64,000 bases of DNA from Escherichia phage AV128, in sequence record OR352958.1; one strand, 5' to 3'. The notes beneath the pieces are model-generated. The model had not been told where the DNA came from and did not search any database. It saw nothing but the letters and a program-made list of their open reading frames with translations. This document shows positions 283 to 61,917 of this stretch, one piece after another; the first letter of the stretch is position 1, and each line of letters starts with the position of its first letter. Position numbers and translations under genes: made by a program.

Positions 283-297
283 TAAACCGATTTGAAT

Positions 298-2513: not shown

Positions 2514-2536
2514 CCTCTCCCAACTAGGAGTTTAAA

Positions 2537-2821
2537 ATGGCTATTCTTAACGTTTCTTCTATTCGTAACGCTATCGTCGAGAACTACGGCGTAAAACAAA
2601 TTTTATCCGAAGTCTACGCCGCGAACGTAGACCAAACTATCGAGGCGGGTGGGGTAACGGTCGCCGAGGCGTTTAAACTTTACGCGGCGTTACCGGAATC
2701 GGACCGCGAAGCCTTCGAAGTAAACGTTAACGGATATTTCTTCGAAGCGGTCGAAATCGGTAATATCTTACTCGTTATGGGCGAAGAAGAATTTGAGACC
2801 TTCTCCCTCGTCGAAGCGTAA
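2537..2821 (+). CDS. small acidic protein, paralog C (94 aa)
   Basis: ATG 2537 with AGGAG; about 18 Asp/Glu vs 4 Lys/Arg; paralog of A and B. Confidence 0.55.
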   Translation: MAILNVSSIRNAIVENYGVKQILSEVYAANVDQTIEAGGVTVAEAFKLYAALPESDREAFEVNVNGYFFEAVEIGNILLVMGEEEFETFSLVEA

Positions 2822-2901
2822 GAGAGGATTTTTAGAGCGTCGTGCGCGGCGCTTTAATAAAATTCTTTCGCGCCTAGCGCCCTAACAAATAGGAGTTTAT
2901 T

Positions 2902-3528
2902 ATGGTTAGCTTAAATCGCTTTTCTACTAGCGGCGACGTTATCGCAACTAAGACCGCCGACCTCGTTGCATTCTATAATGCAAATTCCGGCTCAAAACCG
3001 ATTAAGAAGTTTGCGGACCGCCGGACCGCCGAGACTCGCGTAATCGCGTTAATCGAGTCCTTAAACGCGCTCGATGAGCCGTCCAACGAGTCGCCCATCC
3101 CTGACGCGAAGCCGCGCGAGGAAGTGTCCAGCGATGTAAAAACGCATAAGGCGCGTGCGGTCGTTAAAAAGGCCGAGCCGACCCAGGAAGAACTCGATGC
3201 GATGAGCGATGAAGAGTATGAAGCCTTCGTTAAGAGCGGCTTAAACGATAGTGCAAATTGCGTAGTGCAAAATGGAACTCCTTCCCATCGCCGTTCGAAT
3301 AGCGAAGGTATTGCAAAAAGTTGGGATAACAAGGAAGTGGCGCAAAAGCGTCTCACCCGTAACGGCGTTATTGTCGAGGGTGTAGGAGAGTTCAAATCGG
3401 TCCGCGTAGCGTTTGCTGCGCTGGGCTTACCAGATAGCAAGCACATTCGCTTCCGCATGAAGCTTAAAGAAGCTGGACGCTTGAACTTCGAGTTCGGCAA
3501 CAAGTCCTACACCTTCCAGATCATCTAA
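2902..3528 (+). CDS. hypothetical early protein (208 aa)
   Basis: ATG with AGGAG upstream; contains two in-frame copies of the ATAGTGCAAAT motif (3248-3275). Confidence 0.5.
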   Translation: MVSLNRFSTSGDVIATKTADLVAFYNANSGSKPIKKFADRRTAETRVIALIESLNALDEPSNESPIPDAKPREEVSSDVKTHKARAVVKKAEPTQEELDAMSDEEYEAFVKSGLNDSANCVVQNGTPSHRRSNSEGIAKSWDNKEVAQKRLTRNGVIVEGVGEFKSVRVAFAALGLPDSKHIRFRMKLKEAGRLNFEFGNKSYTFQII

Positions 3529-3534
3529 TCGAAT

Positions 3535-3560
3535 GGCGGCCCTTCGGGGTCGCTTTTCAT
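3535..3560 (+). terminator. intrinsic terminator
   Basis: GGCGGCCC-TTCG-GGGTCGC hairpin then TTTTCAT after stop of 2902..3528. Confidence 0.5.
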
Positions 3561-3578
3561 AGTGCAAATTGGTGGCTT

Positions 3579-3842
3579 ATGAACACGCTTATTCTCATCG
3601 CTACGTTGTCCATCGGAAGTGGTCGCGCCTTATCCCTTTATGACCATAGTGCAAATTGCGCTTACCCAACGCGCGTTGCGGCGATAGTTAATAGTGCAAA
3701 TCGAATGCTATTTGAGACTTGTTGGCGGGTAGATAACGAGAAAGGGCGCATCGTCTTAGGTTATAGTGCAAATCTGCTGGTGGAGTCGTTCGATTGGACG
3801 GCGGAAGGTCGTAAATTGTTACGTAAAGTGACTAAAAGATGA
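3579..3842 (+). CDS. doubtful ORF (87 aa) lying over the motif array
   Basis: ATG with GGTGG upstream, but three motif copies fall in-frame (each read as Ser-Ala-Asn); may be non-coding. Confidence 0.2.
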   Translation: MNTLILIATLSIGSGRALSLYDHSANCAYPTRVAAIVNSANRMLFETCWRVDNEKGRIVLGYSANLLVESFDWTAEGRKLLRKVTKR

Positions 3843-3901
3843 CTTATAATAATACACTTTCTAACGCGTTTATGGTTGTAGCCTTCCCCGTCGTATTACC
3901 G

Positions 3902-3944
3902 ATGGCCCTAGAAGTTGAGAAAATGTGTTCTAGGGCCATTTTAT
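3902..3944 (+). terminator. intrinsic terminator / stem-loop
   Basis: perfect 12-bp inverted repeat ATGGCCCTAGAA...TTCTAGGGCCAT with 14-nt loop followed by TTTAT. Confidence 0.45.
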
Positions 3945-3956
3945 AGTGCAAATTGG

Positions 3957-4445
3957 CTAGTGGCGGGAGAATTGCTCACCCTCTTTGGCTGCCTCTCCAA
4001 AATCCTTGTAGAAATCGTCCATGGAACGGCCCATTTTACTATTGCCATTTTCATCAATCATCGTGATGCCGTAGATGATATTCAGTTCACGGATAGCATT
4101 AAGCTTGGCTGATGCCGCGACTTCTGGATCACGCACAAGCTTCACTAAATTGTGGATGGAACTCTTTACGCTCCACAATTCCTTCAATGGCATCTCTTCC
4201 ATACGCTTTTTGTAGCGCATCTTGTAGTACGGATTGCGCTGCGTGCAGAGGATTCGCTGGCCAGTGTAGTTATCGGTCGCAACCTCCATGCCAAATACTA
4301 GTGCAAAAGCTGCGCGCATGTCATGGCCCTGAATAACAAGGTCAATGAACTCATCGAATAAAGCCTGATTGTGCTCTGCAAATCGCGGGTCTTCAAAGTC
4401 CTCAGGCATCGCTACATAATCTTGACTCATAGTGCAAAATCCCAT
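3957..4445 (-). CDS. hypothetical protein (162 aa)
   Basis: track ORF; both candidate ATGs (4445, 4430) sit inside motif copies and lack a clear RBS. Confidence 0.4.
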   Translation of the reverse strand: MGFCTMSQDYVAMPEDFEDPRFAEHNQALFDEFIDLVIQGHDMRAAFALVFGMEVATDNYTGQRILCTQRNPYYKMRYKKRMEEMPLKELWSVKSSIHNLVKLVRDPEVAASAKLNAIRELNIIYGITMIDENGNSKMGRSMDDFYKDFGEAAKEGEQFSRH

Positions 4446-4656
4446 AGTGCAAATTAATAGTGTGAATTATACAATGATTGAACATTATATTCAAGTGCAG
4501 ATTGATGTTCAAATTGGCTGTAAACGTACACAAACCATAGTGCTGAATGAATATCGGACCGTGGTGCGTGGTGTACTGTTTGATACGTATAAAAGAAATC
4601 CATCCCTTTCGCCGCTTGTTATGCAAATCAATGACTTAGCCGCTGCTGGATGGTTG

Positions 4657-4945
4657 AAGCGTATCATGAAGTATCATCCGTATTGCCGCAAGTCTTTGTT
4701 TTTACTTATATCTTACGGATGATACGTATAAATATAAGTTTAGTATAAGTATGAGGATGTAGAAAAAAATTAATTTAAATTAATTCAAAATGGAGTTAAT
4801 TGTTTTTTTTCAAAGTTGTATAAAGTATAGCGGCGACGCGTATCATCCGTATCATCCGTAAGATGTACCACTGAACCCAGTCGCGGCGCACCATAGAAGT
4901 GTGTGGAGTGAACTACGGATAGGTCCAAATCTTACGTCATTATAC
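4657..4945. repeat. iteron/AT-rich palindromic element, copy A
   Basis: tandem 9-bp units GTATCATCC in direct and inverted orientation around an AT-rich core; 46-bp block nearly identical to 57322-57367. Confidence 0.6.
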
Positions 4946-4999
4946 GCTTAAATTCTATGCGTAAGGTTAGCCAGCTAACTATATCTCCTTTTTAATTTC

Positions 5000-5225
5000 A
5001 AGCGGCAATCCCATAGACGGCGCAGCCTACAGGCCCACACACCACGGTACACGCTCCAATTCCTAGTGATTCCCTCTACAATCCCACAGCACCACAGTAC
5101 AATATTCTTCCAAATACGCACACATATTCAAGACACACAAATCACGTCACAATCCTCGTTTCACACCATCCTCTAATAGATTTACACAAATCAATCGCTT
5201 TATCCGATAATAAAGCCTCACAAAC
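5000..5225 (+). other. CA-rich, G-poor strand-asymmetric tract
   Basis: runs such as cccacacaccac, acacatattcaagacacacaaatcac; dense ACA triplets; no ORF. Confidence 0.5.
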
Positions 5226-5230
5226 AACAG

Positions 5231-5256
5231 GCAAACAAAAAGGGCCAATCGGCCCT
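5231..5256 (-). terminator. intrinsic terminator ending the minus-strand early/middle operon
   Basis: AGGGCC-GATT-GGCCCT hairpin followed on minus strand by TTTTTGTTTG, just past stop of 5274..5726. Confidence 0.55.
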
Positions 5257-6948: not shown

Positions 6949-7275
6949 TTATTCCTTGACTGGATAAAATTTAGGATTGTTCTTGTAGAATGCCTTGAGC
7001 CACGCCTTTGCTTCGGCAATGCTGCTGAACTCTTCCTTGGAGAGTCCGGTGCGGTCCTCGCCTGCGACCTTGAAATGAATGCGCACCTTGAGCCGAAGGT
7101 TGGTTGCTCTCGCGTAGTGGCCTTCATAGCCGTGATGGTCGAGGCTTACGATGGCGGCAAGCAGCTCGCAATCTTCTTTATCGGGATTACCGTTGTAACA
7201 AGTCGGCCAGCCGCGACGTTGGAATGACCTGTATTGGCCTGTTGGCTCAGGGTCCACATACCATTTCAATTTCAT
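6949..7275 (-). CDS. hypothetical protein (108 aa)
   Basis: track ORF in operon. Confidence 0.5.
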   Translation of the reverse strand: MKLKWYVDPEPTGQYRSFQRRGWPTCYNGNPDKEDCELLAAIVSLDHHGYEGHYARATNLRLKVRIHFKVAGEDRTGLSKEEFSSIAEAKAWLKAFYKNNPKFYPVKE

Positions 7276-7613
7276 TTAACCTTCTCCAATTGGAATCTTG
7301 CTTCTGGAAAGCCTGCGACAAACATGTCACGGCCATCGACATCACGCTTCACGAACCAACGCATGCCGTTGACAACCGTGAAGACAATTTGCCTTCCATC
7401 AATAATAAGTCCTTTTGCCTCATAAAGCAAATAAGTCTGACCGACTTTGAAGCTTAACATATCCTTGCTTGTGCTGGTGCACTTGAGCCGCCATTGGGTG
7501 AGATTGGATTCGCTCGCCTCAATGTCAACAACCTTACCGCGCAGCGGCGATGTGCGCTGAAGCTCTTTCATTTGCTCGTCGAACGTGAGCTCACGGCCTT
7601 CTTGCTCTTCCAT
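7272..7613 (-). CDS. hypothetical protein (113 aa)
   Basis: track ORF in operon. Confidence 0.5.
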   Translation of the reverse strand: MEEQEGRELTFDEQMKELQRTSPLRGKVVDIEASESNLTQWRLKCTSTSKDMLSFKVGQTYLLYEAKGLIIDGRQIVFTVVNGMRWFVKRDVDGRDMFVAGFPEARFQLEKVK

Positions 7614-9027: not shown

Positions 9028-9073
9028 AATCATTTCTCCTTTGCTTGATGAACTAAGTATAATACAGGCAAAT

Positions 9074-9102
9074 AAAAAGGCAAGCATTTAGCTCACCTTT
9101 TT
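9074..9102 (-). terminator. intrinsic terminator, copy 1 of an identical pair
   Basis: minus-strand RNA AAAAAGGUGAGC-UAAAU-GCUUGCCUUUUU then AUUUG; needs G-U pairs so forms only in minus-strand RNA. Confidence 0.5.
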
Positions 9103-9105
9103 GAA

Positions 9106-10275: not shown

Positions 10276-10326
10276 AATTCACCTCACTTGTTCGTCTTGA
10301 TGAAAAGAGTATAAGTATTGATAAAA

Positions 10327-10355
10327 GAAAAGGCAAGCATTTAGCTCACCTTTTT
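10327..10355 (-). terminator. intrinsic terminator, copy 2 of an identical pair
   Basis: same 28-bp sequence AAAAGGCAAGCATTTAGCTCACCTTTTT as at 9074-9102. Confidence 0.5.
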
Positions 10356-10360
10356 GATAT

Positions 10361-12848: not shown

Positions 12849-13496
12849 TTATCCTGTGGCCTGCATATTGCGTACATACTTCTGCTCTAATGAATAGATG
12901 AAGTCGGCGACAGTCAATCCCTTCGTGTGCCATTCATACATGGTGAAGCCTGTATTCAGGAAATAGCCGCGCACCTTGTCCATCGCTTCAGCTTCCTCCA
13001 TTGAAGCCATCAGCGCGGCGACGTTGTCATAAGAAGGCACAAATCCCTTCTTGCGTAGCGCATTGCGCAAATCTTTAGTTCTGAAGCCAATCTTGCAAGG
13101 GTCATCACGACCAGTGGATGATGCAACCTTTGGAAGAGCAAGGAACTCTTTAAGGAACATTGCAATGTTCAAGTCGCCTGCGTCATCAAGCTTCTGGATT
13201 CGGTTGCGACCGCGCCCCTTGAATTCACTCGCACGAGGGTGAGCGCCAAAACAGTGCGCCCCTTCCAGTTTAGGGTCGATGATCATTACATCTTTACCAA
13301 TGCGAAGCTCTACGTAGTAAAGATAAGACTCATCGACAAGCTTTGTGCGCTTGCAAGTGATTGAGTCCTTATCATAACCAAAGCCGCGCAACACTGTTGA
13401 AATCATCCGGTTCATTTCTTCGCCGTGAACATCACTCTCTTTGTTCAGTTCACCAAGATGTTGAAAGAATTTAGCGATGTTGATTGCTTTATTCAT
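12849..13496 (-). CDS. hypothetical protein (215 aa)
   Basis: track ORF immediately downstream of the NTPase gene. Confidence 0.5.
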   Translation of the reverse strand: MNKAINIAKFFQHLGELNKESDVHGEEMNRMISTVLRGFGYDKDSITCKRTKLVDESYLYYVELRIGKDVMIIDPKLEGAHCFGAHPRASEFKGRGRNRIQKLDDAGDLNIAMFLKEFLALPKVASSTGRDDPCKIGFRTKDLRNALRKKGFVPSYDNVAALMASMEEAEAMDKVRGYFLNTGFTMYEWHTKGLTVADFIYSLEQKYVRNMQATG

Positions 13497-15166
13497 CAGA
13501 ATTCATCCTTATCTCTTCCCAAAGAACGTTTACGCTCAATAACCTTCTTCAAGAATTCAATATCTTCAGGGTCAGACTCATCGCGGATAAGATACGCTAA
13601 GATGGTCATCAAATCAGAAATGTATTCACCTGCTTCATTCTTAATCAGCGGCGTAAAGTAACCACGCTGGTTGCGATAGGTTGCAGGCTCAAATCCAAGC
13701 TTCGACATGTGCGGCGCAAGGGTACGTGAGAAAGGCGACTTGCCACACTTAGCTCTGAATCCCATAGCGATTGCACCACTGGTAATGTGCCAGCGTCCGC
13801 TGTGATGTCGGTCATAAGGCGCGGTGATGACGACTTCAACAAGGTCGTTGTCGACCATCTCATCACGGATAACGCCGCGAGCACGTTCCATTTCGTTCTT
13901 GCTGAACTCAGTAAGCATGCGAGACGTTTCACCAACAAAAGCGTTGTAACCTGCTTCGCCGTGTTTCTCCATCCACGCAGCACACTCAGCCATCAACTGC
14001 CAAACGTCTTCTTTCAAAGTGGAAAGGTCAGCTTGGAAGTCTTTAGACCAGTTCGGTTGCCCGTCCTTGTCAGCGAGTTGGCCAACAAAGATAGGGTAAA
14101 CACGACGGTTGCCCGTATCGTCACGCTGCATGCCTGCGTATTCGTTTCCGTCCATGATAGCAATCCACTGGCGTGGTTTAACCTGCGTATCTTCAAATTT
14201 GAAGTCCAGGTCATCTTCCGTCTTAGTCAGGAATGCTTTCATGTTTTCGATGTCAGCCTTTTTAAAGCCTGTCATCTCGCCAACGTTCGCGATAATTGAG
14301 CGACCAGTAATAGCTCGCAAGAACGGGTTGAAGTTCTGCGCGGCCAAGTTCAACGGAATCGGTGTTGCGTGGCGGTCGTTCATAATGGCTTCGCAAAGTA
14401 GCTTGCTAAAATAACTCTTCCCTGCGTTCTGGCCGCCGATGAGCGCAATGGAGATTGGCGCTTGACAGCCAGGGTTGGTCAGGCGGTTATAGAGCGATAG
14501 CCAAAAATACACACCGATTTGTCGGTTTAACTCTGTATCGAACGGTCGGAATAGCTCGATAAGGTATTTCTCAATGCGCGCAGTACCGTCCCATTCAGGC
14601 AGCTTCTTGTAGAAGAAGTCCATCAGGTCGTCACGCTGATAACGCATGGCCCATTCCTTATAGGACTGAGCTACCTGACGTGAGTTTGGGTTGGACAGTC
14701 CTGCTGCGTCGACAGCGGCAACTATCTCTGTGACTTCCAACGTCCGGTCGGTGAATGTTTCGCCGCGATGGTCGACTAAGCGCCCACGAAAAGTATCTTT
14801 GTGAGGGAATGGAACAACGCCGCTTCCCTTATCAAACAACGCGTCGAAAACCGCATAACGGTTCATGTCACTCGTCCGGTCCGCCTGAAGAACAAAATCA
14901 TCTTTCGTCGGTTTGTAGTGAGGGAACTTGATTACCTGAAGTGAGGCGAGCAAACGTGCTCTTTCAACCAAGTCTTCTTCACCGTAGCATTCCATGCGCT
15001 CTGCATCTTTCTCAACAGCCTTGTGCTGGAGGCTGATTTTAGCTCTGGTGCCTTGCTGCTCTGCCGCTTGCATTTCTTCTGAAACACCAGCGTCTTGAAT
15101 TTCGTCAAAGATTGCACCAAATTCATCACCTGTATCCTCTGGAAGATTGTCATGTTCAATTGACAT
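13496..15166 (-). CDS. VapE/VirE-like P-loop NTPase (primase-associated helicase-like)
   Basis: Walker A IALIGGQNAGKS; 556 aa; next to putative primase. Confidence 0.55.
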   Translation of the reverse strand: MSIEHDNLPEDTGDEFGAIFDEIQDAGVSEEMQAAEQQGTRAKISLQHKAVEKDAERMECYGEEDLVERARLLASLQVIKFPHYKPTKDDFVLQADRTSDMNRYAVFDALFDKGSGVVPFPHKDTFRGRLVDHRGETFTDRTLEVTEIVAAVDAAGLSNPNSRQVAQSYKEWAMRYQRDDLMDFFYKKLPEWDGTARIEKYLIELFRPFDTELNRQIGVYFWLSLYNRLTNPGCQAPISIALIGGQNAGKSYFSKLLCEAIMNDRHATPIPLNLAAQNFNPFLRAITGRSIIANVGEMTGFKKADIENMKAFLTKTEDDLDFKFEDTQVKPRQWIAIMDGNEYAGMQRDDTGNRRVYPIFVGQLADKDGQPNWSKDFQADLSTLKEDVWQLMAECAAWMEKHGEAGYNAFVGETSRMLTEFSKNEMERARGVIRDEMVDNDLVEVVITAPYDRHHSGRWHITSGAIAMGFRAKCGKSPFSRTLAPHMSKLGFEPATYRNQRGYFTPLIKNEAGEYISDLMTILAYLIRDESDPEDIEFLKKVIERKRSLGRDKDEF

Positions 15167-16476: not shown

Positions 16477-17559
16477 CTATTTTATGCCACCTGCACGACG
16501 ATTTATCATGTCAAGTTGATTCTCAATATAAGGCATGACGATTGCTTCAACAAAAGCAGTCCAACCTTTCTTGCCTTCCCCTTTACGGTGACAGTCGTGG
16601 GCGCAACCGAACACAAACTCATGCTCTGCACCAGGGATAGGGCCGCGAAAGTACGCGCCATACGGGTCGCCGTTGGTGTGCTCTTCACCCCAAGGACAGA
16701 TTATGCGGCACTTGCCTGACATGTTCTCGATGACGTCGCCATCAGACCCTTCACCCATCTTGTTGCGCGCAAGAATTTGCTGGGCTATCTTATACCAAAC
16801 AGCATCGTACTTGTATTCATCGACGTCAATTTGAATCTCACGCTTTTGCGGCATTACAACGTGAAAGCCGAACGCCTGACAGATGTCTTCGATGGTGTAG
16901 CGCAAGGAGTAGTCTGCATGGACAAGTCGGCAGCGAAACGGGTCGCCGTTCTCATCGACATATTTATAGGGGCCGTCGTGAGTCACACGCTTATTGTTGA
17001 TGCACCCAGGAACACGGCCCACGCGCGTTACGTCTTTAATCGTGTTGTCGCCGCCCTTCTTGAGTACCATGTTAACGAAAGACCCAAGGAACGCTTTGAA
17101 CTGAATAAGATGGTCAATCGGTTCTTTAAAGAAGTACCACAGCTGGTGGTTGTTCGGTGATGTCTCGACGATGACAGTCGGCTTCAGTCGCTCGAAAAAG
17201 AATTCCAAATCTAAATCGCCTTTGGACCCTTTACCGTGGCCGATGTCGTCGACCATCATCGCCATACCGTGACCAAAGGCCGACTCTGTACGCCAGTATC
17301 GCATCTCACCCGTCTTTGGGTTGGGAGACTTACGCATTGAACTGATGCACGCATAGCCGTTTTGGTGCTGCATGAGCGGCTTGCCCAACTTCCAAGGCTT
17401 AGGCCAGAAGCTGCTGTTGATCTTCTTGCCGCGCTCGTCGGTCTGTACCGTTGCTTCAGGAGCAAACACCGTCATGACGCGCTCATCTTCTGGGATTCCT
17501 CTTTGGAGTTCTGTTAAAAACTCTTCAATTATTTTTGCTTCTTCTCTTAAACTAGCCAT
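16477..17559 (-). CDS. putative DNA primase / replication initiation protein
   Basis: first gene of operon; acidic MMVDDIGHG motif and C-terminal Cys/His cluster (CPWGEEH...GCAHDCH); family assignment tentative. Confidence 0.4.
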   Translation of the reverse strand: MASLREEAKIIEEFLTELQRGIPEDERVMTVFAPEATVQTDERGKKINSSFWPKPWKLGKPLMQHQNGYACISSMRKSPNPKTGEMRYWRTESAFGHGMAMMVDDIGHGKGSKGDLDLEFFFERLKPTVIVETSPNNHQLWYFFKEPIDHLIQFKAFLGSFVNMVLKKGGDNTIKDVTRVGRVPGCINNKRVTHDGPYKYVDENGDPFRCRLVHADYSLRYTIEDICQAFGFHVVMPQKREIQIDVDEYKYDAVWYKIAQQILARNKMGEGSDGDVIENMSGKCRIICPWGEEHTNGDPYGAYFRGPIPGAEHEFVFGCAHDCHRKGEGKKGWTAFVEAIVMPYIENQLDMINRRAGGIK

Positions 17560-19230: not shown

Positions 19231-19389
19231 TGTTGACGTAAATTTACGAAAAATAAAACTGAAAATCAGTTTAATTAAAGTGGCATTGCCGCCATAGTTT
19301 TTAGTTGCTACTGGCGGCGACTGAAGGCATAATTAAGTTATCCCAAACGGGGAATATAAAATAAACTAATTTATTTAAGGACTGTGAAT

Positions 19390-20229
19390 ATGGCCGAAGC
19401 AATCAAAGTATTATCTAAAGAAGAAAAACAAGCAGCCGCAGCAGAACGTCGTCGCGTGGCTGAAGAAAAACGCCTGGCTAAAAAGAAAGAAGCCGAAGAA
19501 AAACGCCAGAAGCGTGAGCAGGAAAAACAAGCCAAGCGTGAAGAAGCCGCGCTGAAGCGCAAACAGGCTGCTGATGAGAAGGCTCAGAAGCGTGCTGAAG
19601 AAGCAGCTAAGAAAGCTAAAGAGCGTGCAGAAAAGGCTGCTGCTAAGAAAGCAGAGCGTGAAGCCGCTAAAGCAGCAAAAGAAATCGAAAAGGCAAAGGC
19701 CAAAGAAGAAGCCAAGCGCCTGAAAGCTGAACAAGCTGCTGCTAAGAAAGCAGAGCGTGATCAAGCCCGTGCTGCAGCAAAGGCCGAAAAAGAGAAGGCT
19801 AAAGAAGAAGCGAAAGCGAAACGCAAGGCAGAGCGTGAAGCTGCTAAGATCGCGGCGAAAGAAGCTGCAGAACAGCAAAAAGAACAGCGTAAGAAAGAAG
19901 CTGAAGAACGTCGCAAAGCCATCGCAGAGCGCAAGGCTGCCAAAAAGGCAAACGGTCAGCGCCGTGCAAAAGCTACTCACTTCATCTACACTGGCAACGG
20001 CCTGAGCCAGCCGCAGGAGCACTCCACCCGTGGGCGCGTTCTGGCGGCGATCAAAGAAGGCGAAGTTGGCGTGGCGCAGTCTATCGATGAGCTGGGCGAG
20101 AAAGTTAAAGATCAACTGTTTGGCGCTTCCGTTCGCTCCTACCTGAGCAAGCTGGAAGAGATGGGCCACATCGAGTTTGTCGATGTTGAATCCAACGACG
20201 ATGCCGAAGACGGTGATCAAGCGGAATAA
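19390..20229 (+). CDS. K/A/E-rich coiled-coil protein with globular C-terminal domain
   Basis: about 190 aa of Lys/Ala/Glu/Arg low-complexity repeats, then a ~90-aa conventional domain; track start 19384 is GTG, ATG at 19390 has TAAGGA upstream. Confidence 0.55.
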   Translation: MAEAIKVLSKEEKQAAAAERRRVAEEKRLAKKKEAEEKRQKREQEKQAKREEAALKRKQAADEKAQKRAEEAAKKAKERAEKAAAKKAEREAAKAAKEIEKAKAKEEAKRLKAEQAAAKKAERDQARAAAKAEKEKAKEEAKAKRKAEREAAKIAAKEAAEQQKEQRKKEAEERRKAIAERKAAKKANGQRRAKATHFIYTGNGLSQPQEHSTRGRVLAAIKEGEVGVAQSIDELGEKVKDQLFGASVRSYLSKLEEMGHIEFVDVESNDDAEDGDQAE

Positions 20230-23557: not shown

Positions 23558-23622
23558 TTTACTTGTGCGTTTCGATGAGTTATATTTATCTCATCGAAAC
23601 GAAGTCCAAAAAGGATAAATAA

Positions 23623-30535: not shown

Positions 30536-30609
30536 TATCAAAAATAATTTGACTTGTCATGGAAGATGAGTCATAATTACTTCATCGAAACGAAACAGAG
30601 GAATACAAA

Positions 30610-53840: not shown

Positions 53841-54980
53841 TTAGATACCAGTCATACGGACGACTGCGAAAGGACGCTTGAGCAGAACGCCTGCTGTTGC
53901 GTTTGCGTAGTCTTCAACGTAGCTCTTAGCACGTTTCTCAACGCCCAGAGTCATGAACTTAGTCTGAACCAGCTGGCTGAATACGGAACCATCGTCGCTT
54001 GAGCCATCAATTGAGGAATCGATGTGATCAGCGTACAGATATGCCACGTTCAGGAAAGTCGGGTCACTGCCAAGTGCGCCGTTGAGTTCCGGTGCAGATT
54101 TGATCTTCATCTTCGGATAAGTCTGGGTGATCCAGTCACGTACAGAAATACCGAAGTCAGTGGTGTTTGACAGCCAATCAATAGAGTTGGTCGGCAGCGC
54201 CAGAGTCATATCAACCTTCTCTGGATCAATCTGGTCCTGAGAGTTGACACGGATTTGACGAACCATCAAACGGATGTCTGCAGTCACCTGTTGGAAGGTC
54301 GCAGTGGCCCAGCCGGAAGTGGTGTTTGAAGTCATCGCTGCTGGCAGGTTTGGATCATTCAGGAAGCCGAACGTGCGGTTGTTCCCGTTGTACCAGCCAT
54401 AGAAGCCGATTGCGTTACGCATGATTTCCAGAGATACAGCAGCCTGCTGGCGCTTGGTCTCTGCGGAGTTCAGACGCATCGCAGACGCGCGACCTTCTTC
54501 CAGCATACCGACTGCCATGCCCATTTCACCGCGAACGATGGAACGTCGCTCAAAGTTTACGTTCCAGCTTGCCAGAGGAATAGAGGTGAAATCACCATAT
54601 TCAACTGCGGTGCCAGCTGGTTCAACGATGCCCTGAACGATTTCCGCATCTTCCCACTGACCAACGGTGTCAATGCCAACCAGCTCGTCGATTTTACGAG
54701 CAGCGGTCATGATTTTGACGAAGCCAGGCAGCCACTGTTGCAGGAACTGCAGCGGGGTCGGGATTGATGGCGTGGTCTGCGGCGCAGTAAACGCGGCGTC
54801 ACCTACGCGGAAAGCGCCTGCACGGTTTAAGTGCTCAATCTGATCACGCACAATCGCGGAATCAAACACAATACCGATACGAGCAAGCTGGGAAACAGCC
54901 GCGTCGGTGACGGATTGCATATCAAAAGGGCGCACCTTGCTCGCTGGGAGGCGAGAGTGTGTTTGGCTAATGCGAGTCAT
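53841..54980 (-). CDS. major capsid protein
   Basis: 379 aa, follows protease/scaffold and a small structural gene; typical size and order. Confidence 0.55.
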
Positions 54981-54994
54981 TATTCACCTGCCTA

Positions 54995-55612
54995 TTAACG
55001 AGTCAATTGTACAATGGTATAAGTGGAAGACTGGACGCTTGGGCCGGAAAGGGCAATAGTCGTCGGGTCAATCACAATACCGCCTGGGATGGCAACCATG
55101 CCAGTTGGCAATGAGCCAGTATAGGCGATAATTGCACCAATAGGCAAGTTGTTCGGGTTGTTACCGCTGGAAATGCCTTTAGGTACATAAGCAAGCAGGT
55201 CGCCATAGTTAAGCGTCTGCGGACTGGTGCTTGGGTTGAATACTTCAACTACGAGGCCCGTGCACATATCGTAGAACTCGCCTTCGCTATATTGAGGCAG
55301 AACCATGCTGGCACCCAAAGGACCAGTAGAGTTGCCATACAGCGCGTAACGCTTGCTATTGCCGAGGATGCCGTAGTAGTTAGTGCCGCCCAGCTCAACT
55401 TCAAAGTCCTGCGCGCCCAAAGTTTTGGTTTGACCAGTACCCATTAAGGATACGTCAGTCTTAAAACCGAACACACGGCTGATGGCGTTTACGTTTGCGC
55501 CTTCGTTAGCGTTGGCAATTCGGCCTGGCTTCCCACGCTGTGGGCCGTCGCGAACGATGTCGCCAGGAAAGCCAGTTGTATATTGACGGCCTACACTAGT
55601 TTGGAAAGTCAT
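54995..55612 (-). CDS. capsid-associated structural protein (decoration or scaffold-like)
   Basis: Gly-rich ~205 aa between protease/scaffold and capsid genes; start trimmed to MTFQTSVG. Confidence 0.4.
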   Translation of the reverse strand: MTFQTSVGRQYTTGFPGDIVRDGPQRGKPGRIANANEGANVNAISRVFGFKTDVSLMGTGQTKTLGAQDFEVELGGTNYYGILGNSKRYALYGNSTGPLGASMVLPQYSEGEFYDMCTGLVVEVFNPSTSPQTLNYGDLLAYVPKGISSGNNPNNLPIGAIIAYTGSLPTGMVAIPGGIVIDPTTIALSGPSVQSSTYTIVQLTR

Positions 55613-55614: not shown

Positions 55615-57033
55615 TTATTCCCCTTTCAACCAAGCTTCAAATGCTTCGTCAGTTGCTGCAGAATCCGCAGCAGCCTTTTGTTTTGCGACTACACGCTGTT
55701 TTTGACCGTGTTCAACGCCGCGCAGATAATTATCCACCACGTCAAACTCAGCACCATCAACGCACTTCAAGCCTAACTTTTTAGCGCCATATTTCGCTAC
55801 GGACTTGGAGTCCATAGTTGCATGATCAAAGGCACCAACAACTTTAGACAGGCGCTGGTAGAGGCTATTCTTACGAGCAGAATCAGCGTAGAAAGCAGCA
55901 ACTGCTGAATCAGATGCCATTGAGTGTTCCCCTTTTGCTGGACCTGGCGACGCTTTCGCCGCTTTTGTCGGTTTGTCATCTTTTTCGACCGAAGCCCCCT
56001 TTACGTTGCTGTTTTGCAGGCCGCTAACCACATCTTCAGCTTTGTCGCAAGGTGATACATCTTCAGCCTTGACTTCAACTTCTTCGTCTTTGACTTCGGC
56101 TTCAACTTCTTCTTCATCACCTACCGCGCCACCTTTCAGTTTTGCAATAAGTGCTTCGATTTGGCTGATCAGTTGCGGAAGCTCGCCGTCAGCGTGAGAT
56201 TCAGTTTCAACTTCAAACTTCTCTTCACCTTCTGGAGTCTCTTCAGCTTCTGCTTTAACTTCTGGATCAACCATCACTTCTTCATGTTCTTCGGTTGAAT
56301 CCTTCTCTTCTGCTTTCACTTCGACTTCGTCCTGATGAGCAGCTTCGGTGCTCTCTTCATTCAGAAATTGTTCGAGCGCAGGGATCAGTGATTTCAGCTG
56401 TTCAACAGCATTATCACGCGCTTTACCTTTTAACGGTTTTGGCATGTCTAAATCCTCGTTGGATGGTGTTACAGTCGTCAAACAAAGATGGTCAAAGCAA
56501 CGACCATCCAGCACCCGTGCACCTGGTACTCGACCAACGTCCACGAGAGCAATGTGGTTGCCGCGAAGAGTTGTCTGTACCACTTCATACGGCTGCCCGT
56601 CAAACTCTCCAGACTGTATGATGAATTCACAGTCATAGCCCAAAGACAAGTCAACCTTTCCAGAATCGATGGCCTTCTTCAGACGGCGGCTAAAAACTTT
56701 GAGGTCGCCGCGCATCCATGGCTTGTCATAATAAACATTGCCAGTTAGAACGCCATCAACACCATACTCTTCGGGTGCTGTGTTATCCTCATCACCTTCG
56801 AATCCAGAAAGCATTTCGTGATTGTCGATGAAAGGGATATTTTTGAATGAATCTATCGCTTCGGGGTCTTTCACCGCTGACTCTGGGCGATAAACTTTTA
56901 CGATGCGATTCGGATCACCATCAAGTCCAACCTGACCTGCAGAATAGTCAAAAATGCCAAATGACGAAATGGGACAACCCACAATCGTCAAGAATCCATT
57001 TTTGTCAATTTCGCGTGCCGTTTGCATTCGCAT
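55615..57033 (-). CDS. prohead protease / scaffold fusion-like protein
   Basis: N-terminal globular domain then long Glu/Lys/Val-rich acidic coiled coil; ATG with GAGGGTGG upstream. Confidence 0.45.
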   Translation of the reverse strand: MRMQTAREIDKNGFLTIVGCPISSFGIFDYSAGQVGLDGDPNRIVKVYRPESAVKDPEAIDSFKNIPFIDNHEMLSGFEGDEDNTAPEEYGVDGVLTGNVYYDKPWMRGDLKVFSRRLKKAIDSGKVDLSLGYDCEFIIQSGEFDGQPYEVVQTTLRGNHIALVDVGRVPGARVLDGRCFDHLCLTTVTPSNEDLDMPKPLKGKARDNAVEQLKSLIPALEQFLNEESTEAAHQDEVEVKAEEKDSTEEHEEVMVDPEVKAEAEETPEGEEKFEVETESHADGELPQLISQIEALIAKLKGGAVGDEEEVEAEVKDEEVEVKAEDVSPCDKAEDVVSGLQNSNVKGASVEKDDKPTKAAKASPGPAKGEHSMASDSAVAAFYADSARKNSLYQRLSKVVGAFDHATMDSKSVAKYGAKKLGLKCVDGAEFDVVDNYLRGVEHGQKQRVVAKQKAAADSAATDEAFEAWLKGE

Positions 57034-57143
57034 CCACCCTCAAATAAGTATTGTGTATTATATCTAATGAAAAAAACTTAGGCAAACAATAATTATGGTT
57101 TGAATATGTATAACAACCGATATAGCCGCGCCTTAATTAGTGT

Positions 57144-57425
57144 GATACGGATGATACGGATAAAATGAGGCGTATTTTTATCCGTATCGGTGTATAAGCC
57201 GCGCTATCACTGGTGTGCTACGGATGATACGGATGATACGGATACTTTTCATATATAAGAGTTTATAAAAAAAATAAAATTAAATTAGATATATAATTTT
57301 AAATTAATTTATTTGAATTCCTATAAAGTATCGCGGCAACGCGTATCATCCGTATCATCCGTAAGATTCTTTTGAAAACAACTACTTACTTGATACGGAT
57401 GATACGTCATTATACGCGTAAAACC
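57144..57425. repeat. iteron/AT-rich palindromic element, copy B
   Basis: GATACGGAT units at 57144-57162, 57218-57245, 57392-57406 and rc GTATCATCC at 57343-57365 around an AT-rich core; homologous to 4657-4945. Confidence 0.6.
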
Positions 57426-57450
57426 CTGCGGCAATCCATTGCCAGGCGAT

Positions 57451-57588
57451 TCAGTGAATATTAAAAAGCACTCCAGCAACTAAAACGCCAATCAGCATCG
57501 AGTCGTAAACAGCCCATTTCCAAGAAAGCAAAGAGTTGCAATTAATATTTCGCACTTTAACGTAACGTGACTGAATAATCTTTTGCAT
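57451..57588 (-). CDS. micro-ORF, small membrane protein (45 aa)
   Basis: ATG with AGAGGAAG upstream; hydrophobic MLIGVLVAGVLF; below track cutoff. Confidence 0.35.
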   Translation of the reverse strand: MQKIIQSRYVKVRNINCNSLLSWKWAVYDSMLIGVLVAGVLFNIH

Positions 57589-57598
57589 AACTTCCTCT

Positions 57599-58519
57599 TT
57601 AGTTCAACTTAATTGCGGTGATCTGTCCGTAAACGGTAGATGTCAATGCGTCTGTGCATTGATAGTTTAGATACACATTGCCAGGCGCGGCAAGAGTAAT
57701 TATCTTTGTTGGAATATTGCCGCCGAAACGACCTGCAGCCCGAATGCCAGCAGACATCGTGAATGCATCATCCGTAATATCTGAATTACTTGTTGACAAT
57801 TTTACTGTAATTCCGGTATTCGCTTGAACTCCTTCTGTTGCGACAGTCAACTGACTTGCTGTCACAAGCCATTTCCCTGCAGGCAGGTTTAATGTTGCCA
57901 GATTCACCAGAGTTGTCGGAGGATTGCTTACACTATTGCTTGTGTTTTGCACATTGCTTGCAGCAGCGTTAAGAACTCCAGAACCATCAATTGATAGTGT
58001 CGTTCCTACTTTTACGCCACCCAAGGTTGATGCTGATGCAATCGGTAATGAGTATTGAGTAACACTAATTGTACCGTCACCTGCAACACTTATGCCACTT
58101 CCTATCTTGACGCCGCCGAGAACAGAAGCCGTTGCCGCTGGTAACGTGTATTGGTTGCCGCTGGATTTGACTACCTTAACGGCGACAGCATTCTTGGACC
58201 CTCCAGACTCCATGCCTATAATCACTGCTTCTCCAAAAGCGATGGTGATTGTAGATGCAGTTAAACCAGTCTGCACGTCTGTTATGTCCATTTTGGGAAC
58301 TGAAAGTGTCAGATTCGGCTTGCTGGTAGAATCGCCATCATTACCGATCATAAAGAATTGGCCGACTGAATTGTATCCAGATGCCAATGGCGGACTCAAT
58401 GGAACAATCAAATTTTTATCGGATGTAAATTCTGAAACAATCGCCAAGCCGTTAGCATATACAGCAGGCAATACTGGCGTCTGTCCAGATAGAGGAAACG
58501 TGCTGATTGGTATCGTCAT
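57599..58519 (-). CDS. fiber-like repeat protein (~306 aa)
   Basis: repeats ATASVLGGVKIGSGISVAGDGTISV / ASASTLGGVKVGTTLSIDGSGVLN; start trimmed to ATG with GAGGT upstream (track start 58588 is GTG). Confidence 0.45.
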   Translation of the reverse strand: MTIPISTFPLSGQTPVLPAVYANGLAIVSEFTSDKNLIVPLSPPLASGYNSVGQFFMIGNDGDSTSKPNLTLSVPKMDITDVQTGLTASTITIAFGEAVIIGMESGGSKNAVAVKVVKSSGNQYTLPAATASVLGGVKIGSGISVAGDGTISVTQYSLPIASASTLGGVKVGTTLSIDGSGVLNAAASNVQNTSNSVSNPPTTLVNLATLNLPAGKWLVTASQLTVATEGVQANTGITVKLSTSNSDITDDAFTMSAGIRAAGRFGGNIPTKIITLAAPGNVYLNYQCTDALTSTVYGQITAIKLN

Positions 58520-58526
58520 AATGACC

Positions 58527-59378
58527 TCAAATGATTGGTATTTTTCTGCACTTGCAGTGTATCGCCCATCCAGGAGGACCGATGTCACCCTTTTTGAACT
58601 TCAACTCTCCGCCCACTTCCCATAGACGCTTGTCATCAAGTTTGAATCTCATTCCGTCGACATGTTCATGAGAGATTCGCGGCTCCTTTCCTGCTCCTGA
58701 GTGCGCCCATTCAAATTCTTCAACTCCATTCTGGCGCATCCTTTCATCGCTTAGAACGCAATACAATTTGCTTGTCTGGTCTTTAGCGATTAAGTCGACT
58801 CTCTTTGCAGAGAAGTGTTTTACGTTTCGCAGCGCCGCCTGAATGCCTGACGTGCCTTGCTGGGCTGGGTCGGGCGAAGTCAGCGAAAGCATTACTGCTT
58901 CGTACACTCTGTTGTGAATGTCCTCGCCAACCTTAGTCACTAGAGTCGTGTTAAACGTCTCGCTTGTTCTAAGAGTGTTCTCAACGAATTTGTTATATGT
59001 GGCCTTTGGCGCTTCTATGCCTGCGGACTTAAGGCTTGCGAATGTAGCAGAAGTGGCACCCTTTTCGACCGATTTGATAAAATCAGCGGCAATCTTCGAC
59101 CCAACACGTGCAAACGCCCTTGCCCATTTCAGCTGCAGACGTTTCATAAGAGTCTGGAATGTTGAATCAGCAGAGTCTTGCGCAAAGAACTTCTGCACCT
59201 GCTTCTTTTCAAGCCACTCTGAAATTCCTGCCTGATAGTCATCAATCATCGCATAGCAAAGACCTTTCATCTCACGACGGTAGGCCATCGCAATAGCGTT
59301 TGATGGGATTATCGGACTGCCGCGCCCGATTCTATCGGGTGAGCGGCGTTCACGTTTTTTCGAAGCTTTAAAAGCCAT
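58527..59378 (-). CDS. head morphogenesis protein (MuF/SPP1 gp7-like), putative
   Basis: position between portal and head genes; basic N-terminus; start trimmed to MAFKASKK. Confidence 0.45.
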   Translation of the reverse strand: MAFKASKKRERRSPDRIGRGSPIIPSNAIAMAYRREMKGLCYAMIDDYQAGISEWLEKKQVQKFFAQDSADSTFQTLMKRLQLKWARAFARVGSKIAADFIKSVEKGATSATFASLKSAGIEAPKATYNKFVENTLRTSETFNTTLVTKVGEDIHNRVYEAVMLSLTSPDPAQQGTSGIQAALRNVKHFSAKRVDLIAKDQTSKLYCVLSDERMRQNGVEEFEWAHSGAGKEPRISHEHVDGMRFKLDDKRLWEVGGELKFKKGDIGPPGWAIHCKCRKIPII

Positions 59379-59379
59379 A

Positions 59380-61755
59380 TCAACCTTGCTTCGGTGAATT
59401 AGTAGGATTATTGAGTGCTCCGTATGCTTGAGAGCAATCACCCTTCAACCACTCCTTGAATGAGTTCACATCTAATTCGTGGATTGAGTCGAATCCGTTC
59501 CAACCGTTACCAAATGATGCTTGATAAGCTTCTTTCGCTTCTTCTGCTGAATCGAATCCAAGCATACACTTGTGTTCATCAAACTCGCCAGAGTAGTTAT
59601 CGTTTTGGTTCACGATAAAGACTTTCGGCGACTTCAGATTTGGACCCACAAAGCAGTCGACTTCATCACCGTCTGCGCCCTTGGTGCCCTTGATGAATCC
59701 GTAGTGGTGCGGCATCTTCACGGCCCATTCACCGTCAAGGCTGTTTCCTCTACGAATGCTGTTTCGCGGATTCTCAATGCCAAGAATCATTCCGTGCAAC
59801 TTCATCTTAGGTAATGATGCTGCGTCCATTTTACCCACGTTGTGGCGTAAGTTGACGACGTGTCCTTTAACGCTTGGAAGGGTAGACGGTTGCACCGACC
59901 GTGAATCTTTTTGAGGGTCAAAATCCACATCCTGACCTTCTTTCAGGTAGTAATCCGCAATACCCTCCAGACCTTCTTTCAACTGCGTTAGGACATCAAC
60001 CTGATGGCTTGATTCATCATCGGTATCGTCCATGTTGATTTCGACAGGCGCTTTGTCAGGGTTTTCCGCCAACTCACCACGCGCGGCACCCTCTGGCATA
60101 ATACCTGTTTCACTATAGAACTGGCCGCCCATCTTAACGACATCAGCTTTCGCCTGTTCAATATCGGCCTTACCTTGCAGGACTTCACCAGCAGACTTGC
60201 CAAGCAATGCCATATTCTCTGGAGACATCCCTGGGGTTTCTTCTGCTGCGTCTTCCGGCAGACGGTTGTAGCCGCTGTTTTTGTCGTCTTTGATGCGGTC
60301 GCGCTCTTCATCAGGAGAAATGACGCCAGCATCAATAAGAGTTTTGCCAGTGTTGGCTCGCTTATCATTGATTTCTGCAAGTTGAGTAGCAGTAAGTGAG
60401 CCAACTGGTTCCCATGCAACCTTAACATCGACGTCCACCCCTTCTGATTTGAGAAGGATTTTGTAATGGCGGTCGAGAATTTTTGTCAGGTCATGCTGCT
60501 GGCACGTTTCCAACTCTTCGTGATAGCTGACCATCTCGAATTCACCAGTGGCGTTAAAGCCTTTTGGCGAAGTCCCAAGCAGTTTGGTCGACGGAACTTT
60601 TGCGATTGCGGCCACTAGCTGGTACTGGTTCATGATGATGCTGTCGAAGTCTGACAAGTTGATGTCAAACTGGTCCATCTCTTCTTTTTGTCCAAGCACT
60701 TTGACTGCATAGTTGTCGCGGTACTTGATCCACATCATCAGACGTTCTGCAAAAGACCGCTCATTGGCAATCGCCTTGTCAACGTCGGTCCGCAGCGTGG
60801 TTGTACGCTTGGACATCGCCAGCAATGGCGCTTCGTTAGCGGTACGTTCAGCGGCATAGATGCGTTCATAAATCTGCTGAGTCAGAGGAATGCCGCCGTA
60901 AATATAAGTTGGCTTGAGAATATCAGCTGGCTCATCATTGCGCAAGATGATGAGGTGACTTCGATGATAACGTTGTCCGCTGATCACCCAGTATTCTGGA
61001 TCATAGAAGTGCTGTGATGCAGGGTCTGCGGTATTTTCAGACGTCAAAAATGGCATCATCCAATAAGGGTCAACCTGAATGATTCCCTTATAAGACCCCT
61101 TTGTCACACCATCAATGTTAAAAGGCTTGCTGTAATATTCTGGGTCATCGCTACGCACATCAAATATGATGACGCGGATACCAAAAATATTTTTGAATCG
61201 TTCGGCTTCAACTAAGTGCTCTTTGATATTAAATTCTTTATCAATTTGCTTTAGGCGTTCGCTTGCCTGCACAGACAATTCTGATTCAGAGCTTGATTTT
61301 ACTTCCCAACCTTTACGCACTGCATCACGGCCTACCATAGAGCAAGCCTTGTTTACCAGCCAGTGTTGCGCGATAATTGCGCAAGCTTGATAGCCGATAA
61401 ATGATTGCGACAAGTACCAGTTTTGCAACTGAATAGGTACTGTATATGGATTCACCTGCCCTTCTGAACTGATGTTCTTTAAGGCATTATCCATAACCTT
61501 TTTGGATACGGTTGCTGAATCTACTGAGCGACCTTTGATGATTGCAACACCGTCCCCGTTGATATCAGGCTCATACAAAGGAAAGTCATCAACGGTTTTA
61601 AAGGTCGGGCGGTTGCTTTCGGTCTTATCCCAGCGTTGACCGCTGCCGCGCCTTTCCAGGCGTTCGAACGGTGCCAATGGGTCGCCTGGCGGCATCTCCG
61701 CTGGTTCGGCTTCTGGTTGCGTCTTCTCCCAGAGTTTTATGCCAAGAATTTTCAT
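59380..61755 (-). CDS. portal protein with C-terminal extension
   Basis: about 790 aa between terminase and head morphogenesis gene; start trimmed to MKILGIK (AGGTGG upstream); C-terminal ~150 aa carry a pyrophosphatase-like DGDEVDC signature. Confidence 0.5.
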   Translation of the reverse strand: MKILGIKLWEKTQPEAEPAEMPPGDPLAPFERLERRGSGQRWDKTESNRPTFKTVDDFPLYEPDINGDGVAIIKGRSVDSATVSKKVMDNALKNISSEGQVNPYTVPIQLQNWYLSQSFIGYQACAIIAQHWLVNKACSMVGRDAVRKGWEVKSSSESELSVQASERLKQIDKEFNIKEHLVEAERFKNIFGIRVIIFDVRSDDPEYYSKPFNIDGVTKGSYKGIIQVDPYWMMPFLTSENTADPASQHFYDPEYWVISGQRYHRSHLIILRNDEPADILKPTYIYGGIPLTQQIYERIYAAERTANEAPLLAMSKRTTTLRTDVDKAIANERSFAERLMMWIKYRDNYAVKVLGQKEEMDQFDINLSDFDSIIMNQYQLVAAIAKVPSTKLLGTSPKGFNATGEFEMVSYHEELETCQQHDLTKILDRHYKILLKSEGVDVDVKVAWEPVGSLTATQLAEINDKRANTGKTLIDAGVISPDEERDRIKDDKNSGYNRLPEDAAEETPGMSPENMALLGKSAGEVLQGKADIEQAKADVVKMGGQFYSETGIMPEGAARGELAENPDKAPVEINMDDTDDESSHQVDVLTQLKEGLEGIADYYLKEGQDVDFDPQKDSRSVQPSTLPSVKGHVVNLRHNVGKMDAASLPKMKLHGMILGIENPRNSIRRGNSLDGEWAVKMPHHYGFIKGTKGADGDEVDCFVGPNLKSPKVFIVNQNDNYSGEFDEHKCMLGFDSAEEAKEAYQASFGNGWNGFDSIHELDVNSFKEWLKGDCSQAYGALNNPTNSPKQG

Positions 61756-61861: not shown

Positions 61862-61889
61862 TTGCTTTTGTATCATTTTGAGTTATATT
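61862..61889 (+). promoter_or_regulatory. sigma70-like promoter
   Basis: TTGCTT-N16-TATATT about 30 nt before ATG 61918. Confidence 0.4.
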
Positions 61890-61917
61890 TTAGTTAACCA
61901 AACGAAAGGAGATTGAA

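Follow-up and report, generated by a model that had tools for sequence, protein, structure and literature searches.

The 64,000-nt stretch of Escherichia phage AV128 DNA analysed here (sequence record OR352958.1; "the window") contains, among its late head genes, a non-coding element in which short repeats (iterons) face each other across an A+T-rich core. This element, copy B, has a paralogue, copy A, upstream of the small-terminase gene (terS). We propose copy B to be a second origin-type site, bound by a replication initiator (Rep) of the phage; judged from the sequence, this proposal has about an even chance of being correct. B has the anatomy of the origins recognised by the Rep helicases of Staphylococcus aureus pathogenicity islands (SaPIs), it is conserved across several phage lineages and changes in concert with A, the left genome end lies within A, and the window encodes a homolog of the SaPI1 Rep1 helicase. 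We infer that this helicase binds B, melts its core and initiates replication there.

Anatomy of copy B and its relation to copy A

Copy B contains eight units with at most one mismatch to the 9-mer TACGGATGA, in addition to one degenerate unit, compared with four units in copy A. The units of B form two opposite-facing sets around the core, a pair of direct units upstream and three inverted units downstream, with extra distal units, and the element is therefore nearly dyad-symmetric; alignment of B to A gives 151 in direct orientation versus 145 in reverse. Read in genome orientation, the order is GCCGC, an inverted unit, two and a half direct units, GCCGC, the core, three inverted units, GCGGC, a palindrome and GCGGC (Table 1). 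The iteron sets abut both edges of the core, which is the most AT-rich 80-bp stretch of the entire window, with the core of copy A ranking second.

The pentamers that punctuate this layout have a polarity of their own. In A and B of Wifcevirus (the genus of the phage studied here), Pseudomonas phage PB1 and Serratia phage MTx, and in an A-like element of Carpasinavirus (Carpasina), GCCGC occurs only to the left and GCGGC only to the right of the A+T core at 34 of 35 sites. This polarity is maintained even though the main iterons differ completely between the genera. The pentamers are only two to three times denser than in the genome background, and they may constitute a second, more deeply conserved recognition motif.

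Within the window, the iterons are confined to the two copies. The exact 9-mer GATACGGAT occurs eight times in 64 kb, always inside A or B (0.18 occurrences expected), and all nine matches to the 18-mer at three or fewer mismatches likewise lie in A or B (0.03 expected). The two copies are collinear, and their local alignment reaches z = 21 against dinucleotide shuffles. A shared block (4796-4864 in A, 57299-57367 in B) is 83% identical over 69 nt, and the upstream iteron set of B belongs to its last 46 nt, in which 44 positions are identical. An initial annotation of the window, made from the sequence alone, had described a same-orientation copy 52.5 kb away with a near-identical 46-bp block, and the spacing of 52,503 bp bears this out. 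The building blocks it had assigned to copy B were all recovered in place; its list of units was real but incomplete, lacking the unit at 57178-57186 and the palindrome at 57146-57186. Its intergenic gap of 560 bp is approached (~565 bp) if the 45-amino acid (aa) open reading frame (ORF) next to the element is ignored, and the true non-coding gap measures 417 bp (57034-57450).

Table 1 Features of the window discussed in the text (sequences on the genome strand where indicated; the slash marks the packaging cut)
Feature	Position	Strand	Basis or remark
Copy B in full	57034-57450	-	417-bp non-coding gap, 45-aa ORF to protease ATG
Outlying inverted iteron, TCATCCGTA (genome strand)	57394-57402	-	Unit scan
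Upstream iteron set: TACGGATGA, TACGGATGA, degenerate TACGCGTTG	57337-57363	-	"Direct" orientation, abuts core
A+T-rich core, candidate DNA-unwinding element	57246-57329	.	84 bp, 90.5% A+T
Downstream iteron set, three tandem inverted units: GTATCCGTA, TCATCCGTA, TCATCCGTA (genome strand)	57219-57245	-	
Distal iterons, palindrome: TACGGATAA, spacer, TTATCCGTA, TCATCCGTA	57146-57186	-	One direct and two inverted units
GCCGC boxes left of core (genome strand)	57428-57432, 57333-57337	-	
GCGGC boxes, mirrored, right of core	57198-57202, 57125-57129	-	
Near-consensus sigma-70-type promoter, TTGCCT-17-TATAAT	57085-57057	-	10/12 match; protease/capsid operon
Copy A, paralogous element upstream of small-terminase gene	4560-4960	-	4 iterons, 83% A+T core
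A-specific 15-mer AATTAACTCC/ATTTT, containing left genome end	4787-4801	-	Cut between 4792 and 4791
Region matching ~3.7-kb direct terminal repeat of close relatives	941-4791	.	Relatives' records and annotation
Small terminase TerS	3957-4445	-	345 bp inside left end; E217 TerS homologue
Rep1-like initiator helicase, candidate iteron binder	13496-15166	-	Pfam, phmmer, AF2, Foldseek
Prohead protease gene	55615-57033	-	ORF map
45-aa ORF	57451-57588	-	ORF map
Head-fibre protein gene	57599-58588	-	ORF map

Other known elements were considered for this region. Candidate RNAs at 56900-57700 were dismissed, as all Rfam matches fell far below the gathering scores and belonged to eukaryotic microRNA or Listeria small RNA models. 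The iterons were also rejected as DnaA boxes, by inspection and with no scan made: TTATCCACA, which the 9-mer matches at six of nine positions, bears no relation to the iterons of MTx and PB1. An equally visual check, again without a scan, found no match to the integration host factor consensus in the cores.

A Rep1-like helicase and the anatomy of SaPI origins

The candidate reader of the iterons is a 556-aa protein with a Pfam VapE-like superfamily 3 (SF3) ATPase domain (1.6e-28), which phmmer matched to SaPI1 Rep1 (PDB 7PDS; E = 4e-11). Its AlphaFold2 (AF2) model (predicted local distance difference test score, pLDDT, 85.7) shows a C-terminal helix-strand-helix-helix-strand-strand arrangement at residues 436-504 that is winged-helix-like, and a Foldseek search with this model placed six 7PDS chains at the top (E ~5e-16), with ~480 aligned columns that cover nearly all of the 451-residue target. 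Conservation is lowest in the C-terminal domain of the helicase (23% identity, versus 58% for the ATPase), which is what would be expected of a domain that confers specificity and follows changes in the iterons.

SaPI Reps act both as initiators and as helicases that load themselves. Their origins lie immediately downstream of rep and comprise 6-12 short iterons and an AT-rich centre, with at least two iterons per side in opposite directions, and loading of one hexamer per side has been proposed (PMC9371898). Copy B agrees with this description in the number of its iterons, in an AT-rich centre with iterons on both sides and in at least two opposite-facing units per side, and the window encodes a Rep of the cognate type, that is, an SF3 ATPase with a winged-helix-like C-terminal domain. 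The layout of copy A corresponds to the description as well. As in the islands, the short iterons are lineage-specific, form two opposed sets around an AT-rich centre and would be read by a variable winged-helix C-terminal domain. The settings differ: SaPIs are satellites with one origin per island, as opposed to two copies in a virulent myovirus of 68 kb.

Conservation and concerted evolution of the pair

The copy-B region of the window is 94.6-99.8% identical to that of 28 deposited Wifcevirus genomes. In all 28 records the gap with copy B is intact, and its identity is at least that of the flanking 10 kb in every genome compared. An alignment of nine Wifcevirus genomes showed B to be almost invariant, the core differing only in the length of one T-run and at one further base; within the genus, the identity of B amounts to 96-99.8%.

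An A/B pair occupies the same two positions in Myosmarvirus, in Pbunavirus and in two uncultured relatives. Serratia phage MTx (Myosmarvirus) has an element of ~290 bp in two places, across its left end as called by PhageTerm and in the 356-bp gap that precedes the protease gene (69% identity; iteron CGAAAAG). In Pseudomonas phage PB1 (Pbunavirus), a collinear element is common to the 551-bp gap upstream of the protease gene and the 900-bp gap upstream of the terS homologue. Its 10-mer iteron, GG(T/A)A(A/T)(A/T)T(T/A)GG, occurs 11 times in 65.8 kb: seven times in B, three times in A and once elsewhere. Both PB1 elements are found in ~299 Pbunavirus records, with B the better conserved and at the same site in ~295 of 299. 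For a 67.8-kb uncultured relative, the A iteron ATCCGCAAG was predicted beforehand to occur in B; indeed, the gap upstream of its protease gene carries ATCCGCAAG five times. In a second relative of 72.5 kb, A retains the cut motif AAATTAACTCC/ATTTTG and B is without it.

Each of these lineages possesses its own iteron, common to its A and B. The corresponding A-B alignments reach z = 21 in Wifcevirus, 34 in MTx, 28 in PB1, and 33 and 10.8 in the 67.8-kb and 72.5-kb relatives, respectively, whereas B copies of different genera are unalignable (z < 2). Sequences that are alike within a lineage and unalignable between genera indicate that A and B change together, i.e. evolve in concert. Within Wifcevirus, the patches of A-B identity depend on the subgroup, with the 46-bp block being present in FEC19, WFH and Mansfield, and the A copies of Bas99, TH32 and Eco4M-7 resembling B elsewhere; thus, gene conversion between the copies does occur. 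At least five lineages have the two-site layout, with iterons specific to each of them, and B is conserved at or above the level of the flanking genes; both findings sustain the earlier view that the repeat is a functional element, maintained by selection, and did not arise by chance.

The second copy is not universal. Carpasinavirus (Xanthomonas phage Carpasina) has an A-like element (54039-55000 region) directly after the helicase gene, with terS 2.7 kb further downstream, and no B in the gap examined upstream of its protease gene (7208-7579); this gap contains a promoter, a terminator hairpin and an ORF of 43 codons that is not annotated. Copy B is likewise absent from a 40-kb metagenomic relative.

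A packaging cut within the core of copy A

Copy A contains a physical genome end, and no model of the A/B pair can leave this aside. The left end of the packaged genome, ...CAATTAACTCC/ATTTTGAATT..., falls between window positions 4792 and 4791, within the A+T core of A, and was placed at the identical base by two independent groups (PhageTerm analysis for Mansfield; a WFH record that includes the terminal repeat); both determinations concern relatives of the window's phage that are 95-99% identical in the copy-A region. The terminal repeat is annotated as repeat_region 1-3673 in Mansfield and measures 3701 bp in WFH, and records that include the repeat end at window position 941. The 15-mer that contains the cut, AATTAACTCC/ATTTT, is invariant in eight A copies and has one exact match in the window; no match to it was found in B at three or fewer mismatches. 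Copy A is conserved inside the terminal repeat, and upstream of the cut it diverges between subgroups but retains the double 9-mer. The neighbouring gene product is homologous to the E217 TerS decamer (PDB 7UXE, E = 7e-33) and is annotated as TerS in Mansfield.

The location of the cut extends to other genera. In the Pbunavirus JG024, the putative pac site (59,376) corresponds to the core of the A copy; the records of BrSP1 and Pa193 start exactly at the JG024 pac base, and that of PA8P1 two bases later. The packaging cut thus lies in the same place, the core of A, in Wifcevirus, Myosmarvirus and Pbunavirus. Strand-skewed non-coding tracts, G/T-rich and C-poor upstream and C/A-rich downstream, flank A but not B in four genera (window 5000-5250 on the minus strand; PB1 58600-58780 and 59200-59500; MTx at the record end and at 120-300; Carpasina 54570-54700), and the downstream tract of Carpasina consists of the tandem repeats CCAGCACCAACC (three times) and CCCCAGAACAA (three times). 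These tracts are candidate packaging-specific determinants.

Copy B, in contrast to A, does not coincide with a packaged DNA end in the deposited records: it is never located at, or split by, a record end, in any of the 28 Wifcevirus or the ~295 of 299 Pbunavirus records that carry it intact. One metagenomic Wifcevirus genome, IMG/VR UViG_3300045988_152943 (68,520 bp), has ends that overlap by 20 nt (ATCTTACGGATGATACGGAT) inside the left iteron set of B. We rejected this as a physical end, since a 20-nt end overlap most likely marks the point at which the assembly was closed through a repeat; population variation in iteron copy number is another possible cause.

Several repeats were noted at the opposite boundary of the terminal repeat. 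This right boundary, ...GGGCATGGGTCTTT/TGGTGCG at ~941, is devoid of iterons, unlike the left one. GTACTGCAAATTT occurs twice just outside it (~811-823 and ~907-919), and just inside there is a 34-nt direct repeat, its two units at 1008-1041 and 1053-1086 being 79% identical. The short repeats of this region (800-1090) are possible signals for the right-end cut. The terminal-repeat stretch itself encodes terS and several small genes on both strands.

Proposed function of copy B

Taken as an origin-type site, B would be recognised by the Rep1-like SF3 helicase through its variable winged-helix C-terminal domain; loaded to the left and right of the A+T core, the helicase would then melt it, in the way SaPI Reps act on their origins. 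Copy A, its counterpart, would occupy the usual origin position and additionally bear the terminase cut for the left genome end. As B lacks the cut motif, it should be bound and not cut; and its place among the head genes, equivalent to that of oriR of phage SPP1, would allow B to function as an internal origin. Another possibility is that initiator bound at B stalls replication forks and thereby switches replication to concatemer synthesis, as has been proposed for SPP1 oriR. The strong sigma-70-type promoter downstream of the core, which is invariant in nine genomes, is a separate feature and would drive the head operon. Of the three functions offered in the initial annotation, paired origins is accordingly the one best supported, by the SaPI-type anatomy, the Rep1-like helicase in the window and the positional precedent of SPP1.

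A number of observations weigh against this proposal. The rep-like gene lies ~8.5 kb from A and ~42 kb from B, and a location immediately 3' of rep, typical of SaPI origins, is thus found neither for B nor for the A copy of Wifcevirus; in PB1, MTx, Carpasina and the 67.8-kb relative, A does lie just 3' of the rep-like gene. SaPI iterons measure 5-6 nt, compared with 9-12 nt in these phages (9-mers in the window, 10-mers in PB1 and 9-12-mers in one relative). Cumulative GC and AT skews merely follow gene orientation and yielded no independent origin signal. Carpasinavirus does without B, and a second site is hence not essential for such phages. Finally, the packaging cut in the core of A in three genera is what one would expect if the flanking repeats were TerS sites, as in the pac regions of SPP1 and P1; a purely replicative interpretation must take this overlap as either coupling or coincidence.

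Comparison with known two-site systems

SPP1 offers a close positional parallel. A single initiator binds both of its origins, oriL and oriR, each of which combines repeats with an AT-rich unwinding element; oriL is located within the initiator gene, and oriR in non-coding DNA that breaks the conserved late gene order, as part of a segment with oriR and genes 8-10 (PMC6316719). Initiator bound at oriR has been proposed to stall forks and so to switch replication to concatemers (PMC6316719). Similar to A and B, SPP1 thus has two distant copies of the same repeat-plus-AT-rich organisation with the second amid head genes, B being located between the portal, MuF and head-fibre genes and the protease and capsid genes. 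From the SPP1 gene numbering, oriR presumably lies between portal/gp7 and the scaffold/capsid genes, which would be the counterpart of the B position. In contrast, the SPP1 initiator gp38 works with a separate loader and a DnaB-type helicase, whereas the candidate in the window is a single self-loading SF3 helicase; the SPP1 repeats are direct, as opposed to two opposite-facing sets in B; and SPP1 pac is separate from both origins, unlike the cut inside copy A. As the candidate initiator belongs to a family other than gp38, B may work like oriR without being a member of the SPP1 family.

The P4 ori/crr system resembles the pair in having two separated clusters of short iterons in both orientations, which are bound by an SF3 primase-helicase and are both needed in cis. 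It differs in that crr is without an AT-rich unwinding core of its own and in that P4 is a satellite plasmid-phage. Among packaging sites, SPP1/P1-type pac and lambda cosB are reminiscent of copy A, with its cut flanked by repeated motifs beside terS, and unlike copy B, which is at no known genome end, is without the cut motif and does not neighbour terS. The pac-like pair in T4 genes 16 and 19 likewise includes a second homologous copy, a few kb away in late structural genes, for which bridging by TerS rings has been proposed; however, these are 24-bp segments inside coding sequence, with neither iteron arrays nor an AT-rich core, and the model is specific to T4.

Alternative explanations

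The cut in A raises the question of whether B serves packaging instead. B could be a small-terminase platform, i.e. an uncut paralogue of the packaging site whose iterons are bound by the TerS decamer, with cutting directed only at A. It would then act either as a pairing partner of A, in the manner of twin-ring pac synapsis in T4, or as a sink or regulator tying the expression of head genes to the supply of terminase. In Wifcevirus, MTx and Pbunavirus, the packaged end or pac cut lies in the core of A with an iteron set on either side, and the TerS gene directly follows A; both points fit this idea, as does the decameric structure of E217 TerS, the C-terminal helix of which may stack rings and over-expression of which lowers infectivity (PMC9611059). 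The same study, however, found no appreciable DNA binding by E217 TerS in vitro, the DNA being unspecified (PMC9611059). Moreover, B is the iteron-richer and better-conserved copy (eight versus four units in the window, seven versus three in PB1), which is odd for a secondary TerS site; the A-only cut motif and the strand-skewed flanks would suffice for terminase specificity without iterons; and the A-like element of Carpasina abuts the helicase gene at a distance from terS. We consider a terminase platform unlikely, though with a real chance of being correct. A hybrid, which we rate slightly lower still, would make origin and packaging site one module: terminase would cut inside the melted, helicase-occupied origin core of A, B would fire or stall forks, and the pair would time the hand-over from replication to packaging. 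If true, such a coupling device has not been described for any tailed phage.

The promoters near both copies could instead point to pure transcription control, with the iterons as operators that time the sigma-70 promoters of terS (A) and of the protease-capsid-tail operon (B), and the genome end in A set by an unrelated A-specific sequence. Indeed, A and B lie 100-250 bp upstream of near-consensus sigma-70-type promoters that read into late genes (57085-57057 for B; 4494-4466 for A; 13071-13099, TTTACC-17-TATAAT, in PB1), and earlier work on Pbunavirus predicted a sigma-70 promoter in the B core and took intergenic motifs as possible sites for a phage sigma factor (PMC3008698). Yet the iterons are missing at other late promoters, such as those of portal and terL, and where present they precede the -35 hexamers by 60-300 bp and form a dyad about the core of 90% A+T, unlike promoter-proximal operators. 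Nor does the core contain a strong promoter: the best match in a scan of 57144-57425 scored only 9/12 (ATGAAA-17-TATCAT). A late promoter in the AT-rich core, as entertained in the initial annotation, is therefore not backed by the scan, the only near-consensus sigma-70 site being located ~160 bp downstream of the core. No DNA-binding regulator was detected among the neighbouring proteins with Pfam, PHROGs and NCBIfam, and the cut at the dyad centre in three genera would be left unexplained. In sum, regulation of transcription as the sole function appears improbable. The "transcriptional regulator" gp19 of ECML-117, considered as a candidate as well, is not conserved in all members of the genus. 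Partition-like sites, the remaining earlier suggestion, found no backing either, since the full annotation of the relative Bas99 lists no par genes; no dedicated profile search was made.

Lastly, B might be a functionless duplicate kept similar to A by gene conversion, which the patchy, subgroup-dependent identity shows to occur, or a mobile insertion resembling a miniature inverted-repeat transposable element. This is very improbable. B is at least as conserved as the surrounding coding DNA in 28 of 28 records and stays at one site in ~295 of 299 Pbunavirus records, and from one genus to another the layout is retained although the sequence is replaced completely. The exact double 9-mer matched only Wifcevirus genomes in IMG/VR, and bacterial matches in GTDB were unrelated repeats, namely (Thr-Asp-Asp)n coding repeats or plain microsatellites. 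There are no target-site duplications at A or B and never more than two copies per genome, both syntenic. Conservation of B and its absence from unrelated genomes contradict a neutral or mobile duplicate, and the possibility that the unit is a common mobile element in unrelated genomes, which the initial annotation had named as an outcome that would speak against function, was thus not borne out. Among the bacterial matches, an intergenic microsatellite of Ignatzschineria sp. F8392 (3170-3245) consists of eight copies of TACGGATGA, with neither an AT-rich core nor opposed sets, and appears to be coincidental.

Implications

Overall, the likeliest reading, at about even odds, is a Rep-type iteron origin that a virulent myovirus possesses in duplicate and whose copy A coincides with the packaging cut. 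If so, the SaPI Rep type of origin would extend from satellites to large lytic myoviruses, and, should the overlap of origin and packaging site at A prove functional, it would reveal the way in which replication and encapsidation are coupled in a virulent phage. Pbunaviruses belong to the Pseudomonas phages with the widest use in therapy. Neither Wifcevirus nor Pbunavirus has a mapped origin, and the Pbunavirus packaging site is only "putative"; the present analysis provides two precise DNA sites, the Rep1-like helicase as a candidate initiator and, to the exact base, a packaging cut common to three genera. In genome engineering and rebooting, neither A nor B should be regarded as freely available for insertions, although both are non-coding. 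In the literature, we found neither the A/B pair nor its connection with the genome end nor an origin of these phages described; what has been reported for Pbunavirus are "AT-rich boxes", unexplained intergenic motifs and the predicted promoter in the B core (PMC3008698).

Genomic context and further sequence features

The window derives from a Wifcevirus, an E. coli/Shigella myovirus of ~68 kb, with FEC19 as the closest relative (100% identity of the prohead protease). Wifceviruses are reported to have exceptionally short infection cycles. The genes around copy B lie on the minus strand and follow, in genome orientation, the order portal, MuF-like head protein, head-fibre protein, 45-aa ORF, the 417-bp gap, prohead protease, cement/scaffold-like protein and major capsid protein.

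Near the Rep1-like helicase gene, a RepB-type primase (Pfam RepB_primase) is encoded at 16477-17559 on the minus strand. This domain is found in IncQ plasmid primases, which act on hairpin initiation sites, and the palindromes of A and B may be priming sites for the phage enzyme. A 30-nt motif with a short inverted repeat, GATGAGTTATATTTATCTCATCGAAACGAA, sits in three intergenic gaps upstream of plus-strand genes (23574-23603, 30565-30594 and 61877-61906) and is a candidate promoter or operator of the replication-gene operon and other leftward operons. Among small early genes, a 35-nt intergenic repeat occurs at 9070-9104 and 10323-10357 (94% identical). Finally, the ORF at 19384-20229 contains an imperfect 99-nt tandem duplication (19627-19814) that encodes a Lys/Ala/Glu-rich repeat.

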